43,322 nt of DNA from a virus, in IMG/VR virus record IMGVR_UViG_3300045988_014780, positions 1 to 43,322 of that record; one strand, written 5' to 3'. This document shows positions 33,696 to 35,042 of the stretch, one piece after another. Position numbers and translations under genes: made by a program. The notes under the pieces were generated by a model. It was not told the origin of the DNA and searched no databases. It saw only the letters and a list, made by a program, of their open reading frames with translations. Every line of letters begins with the position of its first letter. Positions within the stretch are counted from its first letter, which is position 1.

Positions 33696-34295
33696 TTAAT
33701 CTGCCATTTCGCTAGAATGTGCTTCTTGGATAATGTCACCAGTATCGGCATTTACAAAAGAAACTGTCACATCGTCAACCGGGGTCCCGTTAAACGCATT
33801 ATACAGGCCTCCCAAGACATAGAAGCCAAGTACAGAAACAGACTCGGAAATCCCAACTTCGTTAGTAGATAACTTAACAGTAAAGTGCGTGTAATCATCG
33901 TTGGATGTCACTTCTACAAATGTGGGATATGTCTCCGGATCAATCATTTCCGCCATGGATTCATCAATACTTTCGCGGATGCCGGCCATCATTTCGTCGT
34001 GCTTGGATTTTGACATGATGTAAGTCGCACTGCCATCATCATTTAACGTAATAGACTTAATTCCCTCTTCTTTCGCGGTTTCATCAAGGGCTTCTTGGGT
34101 TGTTCCTTCTTCCAGGAAATCAGCAGGTACAATGATTTCTACATTCAATAATCCTTCGTCTACCTCAATAGATTGAGTTTCTTCGTTTTCAGAGTCTCCT
34201 TCTGTGTTCTGCTGCGCATCATTAGAAGAGCCTCCGCACCCAGCAAGAGATAAACAAATGATTATTGACAAAGCAAAAAATATCGTTTTCTTCAT
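33696..34295 (-). CDS. Lipoprotein (candidate superinfection-exclusion factor)
   Basis: MKKTIFFALSIIICLSLAGCGG has signal peptide and lipobox L-A-G-C. ATG 34295 lies after GGAGA. Acidic mature domain. AT-rich gene. Confidence 0.75.
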   Translation of the reverse strand: MKKTIFFALSIIICLSLAGCGGSSNDAQQNTEGDSENEETQSIEVDEGLLNVEIIVPADFLEEGTTQEALDETAKEEGIKSITLNDDGSATYIMSKSKHDEMMAGIRESIDESMAEMIDPETYPTFVEVTSNDDYTHFTVKLSTNEVGISESVSVLGFYVLGGLYNAFNGTPVDDVTVSFVNADTGDIIQEAHSSEMAD

Positions 34296-34311
34296 CTTCA
34301 ATTCTCCAGTT

Positions 34312-34689
34312 TTATACATAGTACGGATTTGGCTTCATTAAAATTGCAATCAAATCAATAATGCACCCGATCAATAATAAGCCACCAGTAAAGATATAAA
34401 TGACGCCCATTAATATTTTCCCTTCATAGAATTTATGAGCGCCAAAAACTCCAAGGAAAAGGCAGAGGACGAAAGCTACCCATTTGTTTTTTTCTTTCCC
34501 TCGGTTCTCCATTTTGACATCAACAGTATTTGTGTTGGTATTTGTATTATTTATCACAACGGGCTGCTGATTTGCCTTTAAATCTTCAACTTGCTTCCCG
34601 CAAATCGGGCATACGATGCAATCTTTATCTATCTGTTGGCCGCAATGCTTACAAAACTTTTTCCCAGGTTGTAAAATCTCATTTTCCAT
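34312..34689 (-). CDS. Zinc-ribbon + TM2-domain membrane protein
   Basis: ATG 34689 lies after GGAGGGG. CKHCG...CPICG ribbon, TN-repeat linker, then TM2-like WVAFVLCLFLGVFGAHKFYEGK...GGLLLIGCIIDLIAIL. Confidence 0.75.
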   Translation of the reverse strand: MENEILQPGKKFCKHCGQQIDKDCIVCPICGKQVEDLKANQQPVVINNTNTNTNTVDVKMENRGKEKNKWVAFVLCLFLGVFGAHKFYEGKILMGVIYIFTGGLLLIGCIIDLIAILMKPNPYYV

Positions 34690-34709
34690 TTTATCCCCTC
34701 CGTATTCAA

Positions 34710-35042
34710 CTATTTTCCAATCCATTCAGGGTCAACAACACCCAACACTTTTCCTAGACCCTGAACGTTATCACTCATTGGAACTGGTTCAATAGACGGG
34801 TTTAGTGAAATCAGGCAGTCTTTTCCGCGCTTTTTCACATGCGGTTTCCCATCAATTAGGAAAAGTCCGATTTCTCCTTCAAACACATCTGGCTGTTTCT
34901 GTATCATCAGACGGTCCCCATCTTTATAAGGGGGAACCAAATCAGGCCCGATATGGACTAAAAAATCTACTCTTGCTGTTTCTTTGCACATCTTTATTTT
35001 GGTTGGGCGGGACGGTGATGCAAAATATTCTTCTCTTGTCAT
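34710..35042 (-). CDS. Stand-alone LexA/CI-type S24 peptidase-like domain, nucleophile Ser replaced (no HTH)
   Basis: 110 aa. GPDLVPPYKDGD aligns position for position with the canonical GDSMEPTIKDGD (Ser to Asp). The HVKKR segment keeps the Lys. Confidence 0.6.
   Translation of the reverse strand: MTREEYFASPSRPTKIKMCKETARVDFLVHIGPDLVPPYKDGDRLMIQKQPDVFEGEIGLFLIDGKPHVKKRGKDCLISLNPSIEPVPMSDNVQGLGKVLGVVDPEWIGK

Follow-up and report, generated by a model that had tools for sequence, protein, structure and literature searches.

In the temperate siphophage genome held as IMG/VR virus record IMGVR_UViG_3300045988_014780, of which positions 1 to 43,322 were analysed (the window), three tightly spaced genes on the minus strand at 33696-35042 encode a stand-alone S24 domain of the CI/LexA type, a membrane protein that carries a zinc ribbon and a TM2 domain, and an acidic lipoprotein. 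As judged from comparison of related loci, the genes of this trio move separately, are stacked together in one lineage only, at a cargo hot spot, and do not make up a conserved system, because partial combinations of the genes exist and their joint occurrence is confined to close relatives of the window. We consider it probable that the three are independent cargo genes, the S24 protein (referred to here as the orphan) being an accessory of lysogeny control and the other two being candidate exclusion proteins.

An earlier note on this DNA had reported three minus-strand genes lying between the repressor and integrase genes of a temperate Firmicute phage. The products were given as an S24 domain of 110 residues lacking a helix-turn-helix (HTH), a zinc-ribbon/TM2 protein of 125 residues and an acidic lipoprotein of 199 residues with the lipobox LAGC, the last two being envelope proteins. 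These descriptions are sound. The gene models agree with the open reading frames (ORFs), with the sequence and with independent gene calls on identical contigs, which give the same gaps of 20 nucleotides (S24 to TM2) and 16 nucleotides (TM2 to lipoprotein), and the products agree with their Pfam matches and sequences. The note also took the trio to be a single system in which signalling falls to the S24 domain, a proposal that we do not uphold since every pairwise and single combination of the genes exists. A defence system would have mattered; the survey described below shows instead an ordinary, exchangeable stack of prophage cargo, in which the orphan, a `pre-cleaved' CI C-terminal domain (CTD), is the only element that a specialist might follow up.

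In the mechanism that we propose, the block would consist of independently exchangeable cargo (`moron') genes in the hypervariable slot that runs from the immunity genes to int in a Faecalibacterium-type temperate siphophage. The orphan would be a free-standing CTD of a CI repressor, equal to the fragment left by RecA-stimulated self-cleavage, and would act as an accessory of lysogeny and induction control. Its partners might be S24-type repressors or host LexA, contacted through the dimerisation surface, or activated RecA. The zinc-ribbon/TM2 protein and the lipoprotein would be expressed from the prophage and would act independently at the envelope. Prophage expression and an action at the envelope are probable for both proteins, and their position, together with the analogy to Ltp and other superinfection-exclusion (Sie) proteins, makes superinfection exclusion the most likely role.

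Occurrence of the three genes apart and together

Hidden Markov models (HMMs) of the three families were scanned over all ORFs of IMG/VR loci anchored on each gene; individual loci are designated L001 and so on. The orphan was present in eight of the 80 loci anchored on TM2 and missing from the remaining 72, and an adjacent lipoprotein gene was present in five of the 80, with one more locus (L201) having a homologue that is not part of the same operon. Both S24 and TM2 genes were found in five of the 40 lipoprotein loci, and the other 35 were counted as having neither of the two. Every co-occurrence of the full trio was in a close relative of the window, with TM2 at least 94% and the lipoprotein at least 92% identical. 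The earlier note had called for a survey of this kind, and the restriction of the trio to near-identical relatives goes largely against the system that it envisaged. The sizes of the three families also differ by orders of magnitude, at 11 matches for S24, 3645 for TM2 and 271 for the lipoprotein.

The neighbours of the orphan change even where the S24 protein itself is identical. The lipoprotein gene accompanies the identical protein in L002, L005, L007, L008 and L010 and is absent from L003, L004, L006 and L009, in which a coiled-coil gene comes directly after TM2. S24 and TM2 without the lipoprotein are found in these last four loci and in L022 and L023. In L001 the TM2 gene is frameshifted, and in L028, from which both TM2 and the lipoprotein are missing, the coiled-coil gene is the next one after the orphan. 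The immunity genes upstream of the identical orphan are of three unrelated types: an HTH protein with an inverted ImmA; a full-length HTH-S24 repressor of 214 residues with a 73-residue gene; and an HTH protein of 122 residues with an M78 protease of 146 residues and a zinc-ribbon protein of 182 residues. In L004 (7391-7939) this 182-residue protein, which has zinc ribbons at both ends, is encoded directly upstream of the S24 gene.

In L019 a 75%-identical orphan precedes an unrelated lipoprotein of 148 residues. In a [Clostridium] leptum-type prophage (L011-18) a 51%-identical orphan gene begins 35 nucleotides after a full-length HTH-S24 repressor gene and is followed by genes for a bPH/SHOCT protein and for a HIRAN protein with a membrane anchor. 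Homologues of TM2 at 63-86% identity stand alone between the repressor and an integrase or serine recombinase (L031-44, L254 and L255), and lipoprotein homologues of 53-57% identity occur in other lysogeny modules that have neither TM2 nor the orphan, where they adjoin HIRAN, Fic or unknown genes (L045-55).

Membrane-anchored HIRAN proteins recur in the slot between repressor and integrase in other prophages of gut Clostridia (L012, 6969-7790; L045, 3355-3942). Genes of the Fic, P63C, bPH/SHOCT and toxin–antitoxin types are found elsewhere in the same slot and mark it as a general hot spot for cargo.

We judge it unlikely that TM2, as membrane anchor, and the lipoprotein, as surface partner, make up an envelope module of two genes to which the S24 protein is unrelated. 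The window-type lipoprotein (at least 92% identical) always has TM2 immediately upstream across a gap of 16 nucleotides, and a diverged pair is found in L201, where TM2 is 57% identical and the homologue of the lipoprotein reaches 261 bits against the HMM of its family. The two genes of L201, however, are on opposite strands and are separated by 1.4 kb that hold another gene; other cargo, such as a toxin–antitoxin pair, surrounds them. Moreover, the lipoprotein is missing from 72-74 of the 80 TM2 loci and TM2 from 34-35 of the 40 lipoprotein loci, and a 100%-identical TM2 protein occurs without the lipoprotein in L003, L009, L022 and L023. Zinc-ribbon membrane anchors are generic N-terminal modules in Firmicutes. 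That other phages have the lipoprotein ectodomain fused to a double zinc ribbon at its N-terminus would favour a module, but may on this account reflect mere alternative anchoring.

It is very improbable that the prophage expresses a single system for exclusion or abortive infection, with the S24 protein sensing or signalling and the envelope pair executing. Such a system would be in keeping with the spacing of 20 and 16 nucleotides, with one ribosome-binding site (RBS) for each gene, with the joint presence of the genes in the lineage of the window and with their place in the slot that is home to Sie genes, ltp among them (PMC3952083). There is also no competing annotation. PADLOC returned no match for the S24 protein or the lipoprotein and only noise for TM2, in line with the statement in the earlier note that no described defence system corresponds to the trio, and none of the three proteins received a functional name from scans with PADLOC, PHROGs and NCBIfam. 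Nevertheless, all partial combinations exist, even with a 100%-identical S24 protein; the TM2 and lipoprotein families are far larger than the S24 family and are mostly found without an S24 gene; TM2 is frameshifted in L001; and the S24 allele of the window has no Ser nucleophile. No fusion of S24 with TM2 or a zinc ribbon was found among the matches listed for the S24 and TM2 families. A toxin–antitoxin relation between TM2 and S24 was rejected, since each gene occurs without the other.

The stand-alone S24 domain

The S24 protein matches Peptidase_S24 (PF00717) with E = 3.8e-7 and 30.3 bits, against a cut-off of 23.3, and covers only positions 29-115 of the profile; no HTH was found in the Pfam scan. 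The AF2 model has a predicted local distance difference test score (pLDDT) of 90. Its best matches in the PDB, all assigned a probability of 1.00 by Foldseek, are the CTD of Mycobacterium tuberculosis LexA (E = 3e-6), Escherichia coli LexA, UmuD' and the CTD of lambda CI, and a phmmer search of the PDB likewise leads to the M. tuberculosis LexA CTD.

Alignment with full-length relatives that combine an XRE-type HTH with an S24 domain places the start of the orphan within a few residues after their ASAG/TG motif, which, by homology with LexA and CI, would be the Ala-Gly site of self-cleavage. A cleavage site of this type is an Ala-Gly (or Cys-Gly) pair about 35 residues upstream of the catalytic Ser. 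The orphan has no internal Ala-Gly site, having just 33 residues ahead of the Ser position. From this start, directly behind the Ala-Gly motif that the full-length relatives carry, the gene appears to encode the equivalent of the post-cleavage C-terminal fragment, and would stand to those relatives as UmuD' does to UmuD.

The position of the nucleophile is occupied in the window by Asp34 (G-P-D-L) instead of the catalytic Ser. A sister allele (L025-30; in L025 at 5001-5330), which is otherwise identical from residue 47 onward, has Ser (D-E-S-L), the 51%-identical homologue has Thr (D-E-T-L) and the full-length relatives have G-D-S-M. The general base, Lys70, is invariant in both S24 alignments, and 20 residues are invariant in the alignment of the orphan family. 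A relaxed active-site motif fits a protein that has no cleavage site left to cut. With Asp in place of the Ser nucleophile, the allele of the window is most likely non-catalytic and acts by binding.

A profile search of 1.84 billion cluster representatives found one representative of the orphan family at E < 1e-30; the next matches are to the C-terminal 100 or so residues of XRE-HTH+S24 proteins of about 250 residues, to whose CTDs the orphan is 35-45% identical. The 11 matches from a word-index search are all of 76-121 residues, most of them 109-121. In cultured phages, matches were confined to CI repressors, from phages of Streptococcus, Staphylococcus and Clostridium, and a profile search of genome contigs with the S24 alignment found nothing. 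The identical 110-residue protein is present in 428 index blocks of a public assembly collection. The one constant trait of the orphan is its place immediately downstream of immunity genes, whatever their type. It represents a narrow, conserved family of free-standing CI CTDs beside the immunity genes of abundant human-gut prophages, and a role in induction control would be easy to test.

Two simple origins of the gene were considered and rejected. A split-off 3' half of the neighbouring repressor gene is contradicted by the inverted immA and the 154-nucleotide spacer that intervene, and by the presence of the orphan next to complete HTH-S24 repressors. A recent duplication of the CTD of the neighbouring repressor is contradicted by an identity of only 30-32%.

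There is very little likelihood that a CI-type repressor was reduced to the S24 ORF, as a functionless relic, when recombination swapped the immunity cassette. The exact match to the C-terminal part of full-length repressors, the mosaic immunity genes upstream and the degenerate active-site motif (GDSM replaced by GPDL, DESL or DETL) are what a remnant would display. Set against these are a ratio of nonsynonymous to synonymous substitution rates (dN/dS) of 0.04-0.26, with synonymous change saturated between distant members, and the 20 invariant residues, which include Lys70. Down to homologues of 51% identity the length remains constant at 109-111 residues and the gene has a start codon and an RBS to itself; it is also kept beside intact full-length HTH-S24 repressors (L009, at 2505-3149, and L011-18). 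The dN/dS values, the constant length, the RBS and this persistence together indicate that, as far as sequence comparison can tell, the gene is under purifying selection and is not decaying.

Equally remote is the idea of a UmuD'-like accessory, comparable to P1 HumD for E. coli UmuC, that would work with a Y-family polymerase of the host to raise damage tolerance or mutagenesis in lysogens: the size and the `pre-cleaved' architecture are the same and UmuD' is among the top fold matches, but the closest sequence relatives are CTDs of CI-type repressors and not UmuD, neither the scanned ORFs of the window nor the genes called in related loci included a Y-family polymerase, and the S24 gene always adjoins immunity genes.

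We therefore favour an accessory of lysogeny or induction control that would act through protein–protein contacts, a role suggested by the fold, the kinship with repressor CTDs, the start site, the active site, the selection and the position beside immunity genes. The contacts might conceivably be made by the dimerisation surface of S24 domains or by the surface that binds the RecA filament. A bolder version of this accessory role, which we put forward as a speculation more apt to fail than to hold, is that the orphan is a new kind of phage regulator: a repressor CTD encoded in pre-cleaved form and made in the lysogen, which would bind activated RecA or the CTDs of S24-type repressors, with host LexA or the CI of a rival phage as targets, and would adjust induction by the SOS response or poison the repressors of rivals. 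Where a phage has an ImmR/ImmA switch, the orphan might supply the link that is missing from RecA to ImmA. A literature search found no functional study of stand-alone S24 domains beyond a mention in Stx phages.

The two envelope proteins

The match of the second protein to TM2 (PF05154) is clear (E = 5.5e-18; 65.4 bits against a cut-off of 27.9) and is accompanied by weak zinc-ribbon matches. The chain begins with a Cys4 zinc ribbon (CxxC...CxxC) and continues through a linker rich in Asn and Thr to the TM2 hairpin and a C-terminus that reads KPNPYYV. All four Cys residues are invariant in 26 homologues, as is the KPNPYYV end, and the loop GAHKFYEGK of the TM2 hairpin is conserved. Hydropathy suggests that nearly nothing of the protein would be exposed outside the membrane. 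The TM2 domain is without a known function (PMC3581485), and no functional study of TM2 proteins in phages was found in the literature.

The zinc-ribbon/TM2 gene is very common among prophages and as a rule stands there by itself. In every prophage context inspected, over a diverse set of gut Clostridia phages, it comes directly after the repressor gene. This consistent position argues for expression in the lysogen and for a role at the level of the membrane, possibly in exclusion. Its recurrence across gut Clostridia prophages is what gives the protein its interest, since it points to a membrane function expressed from the prophage.

The lipoprotein has the signal peptide MKKTIFFALSIIICLSLAGC with the lipobox LAGC, and Cys20 is invariant in 23 homologues. 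It is strongly acidic, with an isoelectric point of 4.05 and, in the mature form, 40 Asp and Glu residues against six Lys and Arg. The model consists of a disordered tether of about 25 residues and an ectodomain of two alpha/beta lobes, with a pLDDT of about 90 for residues 45-199. A fold search of the PDB with this model gave nothing significant and there was no match to a Pfam family; the predicted fold of the lipoprotein family is thus one not seen among solved structures. The earlier note had offered Ltp-type lipoproteins as a parallel. As a family assignment this does not stand, for there was no match to PF07553 (Lipoprotein_Ltp) at E ≤ 0.1 and the fold is predicted to be alpha/beta.

In BFVD the ectodomain is found behind an N-terminal double zinc ribbon in other uncultured siphophages (A0A8S5LTC9, A0A8S5R4X7 and A0A8S5U9G1), with 32-34% identity and TMq values of 0.71-0.72. 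A larger protein, annotated as a `host cell surface-exposed lipoprotein', gives a weaker match (TMq 0.51, 20% identity) over part of its length. The models therefore suggest a surface domain that is delivered with alternative membrane anchors across phages. Among cultured phages no homologue of the lipoprotein was found except for one weak, partial match in Streptomyces phage Circinus.

Several observations weigh against independent cargo as the explanation of the trio. The genes are tightly spaced and usually travel together in their own lineage, all three being present in 11 of the 21 loci with an S24 protein that is at least 84% identical. In every context seen except L028, the S24 gene is followed by a gene for at least one membrane, lipo- or membrane-associated protein, and a loose functional tie of the orphan to envelope cargo is conceivable. 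The fusion of the lipoprotein ectodomain to a double zinc ribbon in BFVD could hint at a link with the zinc-ribbon anchor. As regards the S24 domain, the partners proposed for it are conjecture, and its identity of only 30-32% to the CTDs of adjacent repressors disfavours specific heterodimerisation with them. This low identity and the presence of neighbouring repressors that consist of an HTH alone make it more likely, in our view, that the target is a constant one in the host, LexA or RecA, or else a foreign repressor, than that it is the repressor of the phage itself.

Genome context and comparison with known systems

The window is a complete-looking genome of about 43 kb, with genes for a terminase, an SPP1-type portal, a capsid protein, a holin and an amidase, and the replication genes for DnaB, SSB and Sipho_Gp157. 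The host is probably Faecalibacterium, because the leuB gene that flanks integrated copies is 83% identical to Faecalibacterium genomes, which provide the best LeuB match. Searches of cultured-phage DNA found no close relative of the trio region or of the whole genome. The lysogeny module lies on the minus strand, with an inverted immA as the sole exception, and its features are listed in Table 1.

Table 1. Features of the lysogeny module and its borders in the window.
Feature	Position	Strand	Evidence
Cro-like HTH protein, first gene of the rightward (lytic) transcription unit	36386-36589	+	Pfam HTH_3 (1.3e-11)
HTH repressor, XRE-type, 132 residues, without S24 domain	35771-36169	-	Pfam HTH_3
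ImmA/IrrE-type M78 metalloprotease with HEIGH motif	35197-35814	+	Pfam M78 (2.2e-12); PADLOC CapP-like
AT-rich intergenic region (GC 0.31) of 154 nucleotides that separates the divergent S24 and immA genes	35043-35196		
Stand-alone CI/LexA-type S24 CTD, 110 residues	34710-35042	-	Pfam, phmmer, AF2, Foldseek, alignments, dN/dS
Zinc-ribbon/TM2 membrane protein, 125 residues	34312-34689	-	Pfam TM2, homologue alignment, neighbourhoods
Acidic lipoprotein, 199 residues, without Pfam family	33696-34295	-	Lipobox, AF2 model, BFVD matches
Coiled-coil gene with in-frame TAG at 33597-33599; distal 55-residue ORF at 33405-33572	33405-33659	-	
Coiled-coil protein, 88 residues, phrog_33872, paralogue of the 33405-33659 gene	33126-33392	-	
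Tyrosine integrase, end of the lysogeny module	32059-33084	-	Pfam Phage_integrase (1.8e-18)

The AT-rich block that the earlier note had placed at about 33.1-36.4 kb is real and compositionally foreign. The GC content of 33126-36385 is 0.398, against 0.522 for the rest, and this is the lowest 3.26-kb stretch of the genome, about three standard deviations below the mean. Each gene of the trio has its own RBS (AGAGGG for S24 and GGAGGGG for TM2). The trio is not a closed unit, since two further small coiled-coil genes in the same direction lie between the lipoprotein gene and int. The first of these, at 33405-33659, is a steadier neighbour of the S24 gene than either TM2 or the lipoprotein gene. 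Its in-frame TAG lies in the context MAQ*KKE, and the gene is intact, at 84-109 residues, in L009, L004, L006 and L019. Both coiled-coil proteins end in IN(E/D)LKKAQ. Between the second of these genes and int, at about 33098-33124 on the minus strand, there is a GC-rich stem-loop, CCGCCGTCAGG-tctcc-CCTGGCGGCG, that has no T-run and might serve, in front of int, as an attenuator or a processing site.

The S24 gene is parted from the repressor gene by the intergenic region and the antisense immA-like gene. A promoter-like site for immA was found within this region at 35126-35154 on the plus strand, and promoter prediction called no strong promoter for the S24 gene in 35043-35196. Between the promoter-like site and the RBS of immA, at 35165-35178, lies a Cheo-box-like sequence, AAAACAAATGTTCG, which gives a faint lead towards control of immA by LexA. 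As evidence for a LexA box this sequence was set aside, matches with two mismatches not being enriched in the window (nine, against 16.7 expected). The immA gene converges on the repressor gene, with an overlap of 44 nucleotides at the 3' end. The usual layout has immR and immA in the same direction; the inverted layout is kept in at least 14 related loci, in which ImmA is 97-100% identical and the HTH partner varies from 67 to 100%. Convergent transcription of the repressor gene and immA could be part of the switch.

In the early region, a protein with pentapeptide repeats and DUF5758 is encoded at 38116-38826 on the plus strand. Among the related phages that have this region its length is 196, 206, 221, 226, 231, 236 or 261 residues, and this variation in steps of five residues corresponds to a varying number of repeats. 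The protein is possibly a DNA mimic or an anti-defence protein.

Turning to known systems, the zinc-ribbon/TM2 protein is a clear member of the TM2-domain proteins (PF05154) and shares its architecture of a zinc ribbon and TM2 with thousands of homologues, whereas its position right after the prophage repressor is an observation of context from the present analysis. The membrane abortive-infection protein PdpSau was considered as a positional precedent and rejected, since PdpSau lies in the lysis module.

With the CTDs of CI-like repressors and LexA the orphan has in common the fold, an identity of 35-45% to the CTDs of XRE-HTH+S24 proteins, the conserved Lys and a location in the immunity region. 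It differs in having no HTH, linker or Ala-Gly site, in being a separate gene downstream of the actual repressor, and in the replacement of Ser by Asp in the window, with Ser or Thr in sister alleles.

Phage P1 HumD is a phage-encoded analogue of UmuD', a pre-processed S24 domain that serves E. coli UmuC. The orphan resembles UmuD' and HumD as a phage-borne S24 domain of about 110-115 residues that starts after the cleavage site, and UmuD' is a top structural match. In contrast to them, it falls outside the UmuD sequence clade, is encoded in the lysogeny module and had no polymerase partner that we could find nearby.

Stx phages encode, in their regulatory region, atypical S24-only proteins that have no HTH, the `clade III CI' proteins, the function of which is unknown (PMC8951638). 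The orphan is likened to them by description, as an S24-only protein encoded in the regulatory region of a phage. Those proteins, however, belong to proteobacterial phages and are reported as the CI homologue itself, not as an extra gene beside the repressor.

Ltp of the Streptococcus thermophilus phage TP-J34 is a superinfection-exclusion lipoprotein, the negative charges of which contact the tape-measure protein of the incoming phage (PMC3952083). The lipoprotein of the window shares with Ltp a gene in the lysogeny module, a lipid anchor and a negatively charged surface protein. It differs in having no match to PF07553 and in its two predicted alpha/beta lobes, for which the PDB holds no match. 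By this analogy the lipoprotein may work in the manner of Ltp, although it lies outside the Ltp family.

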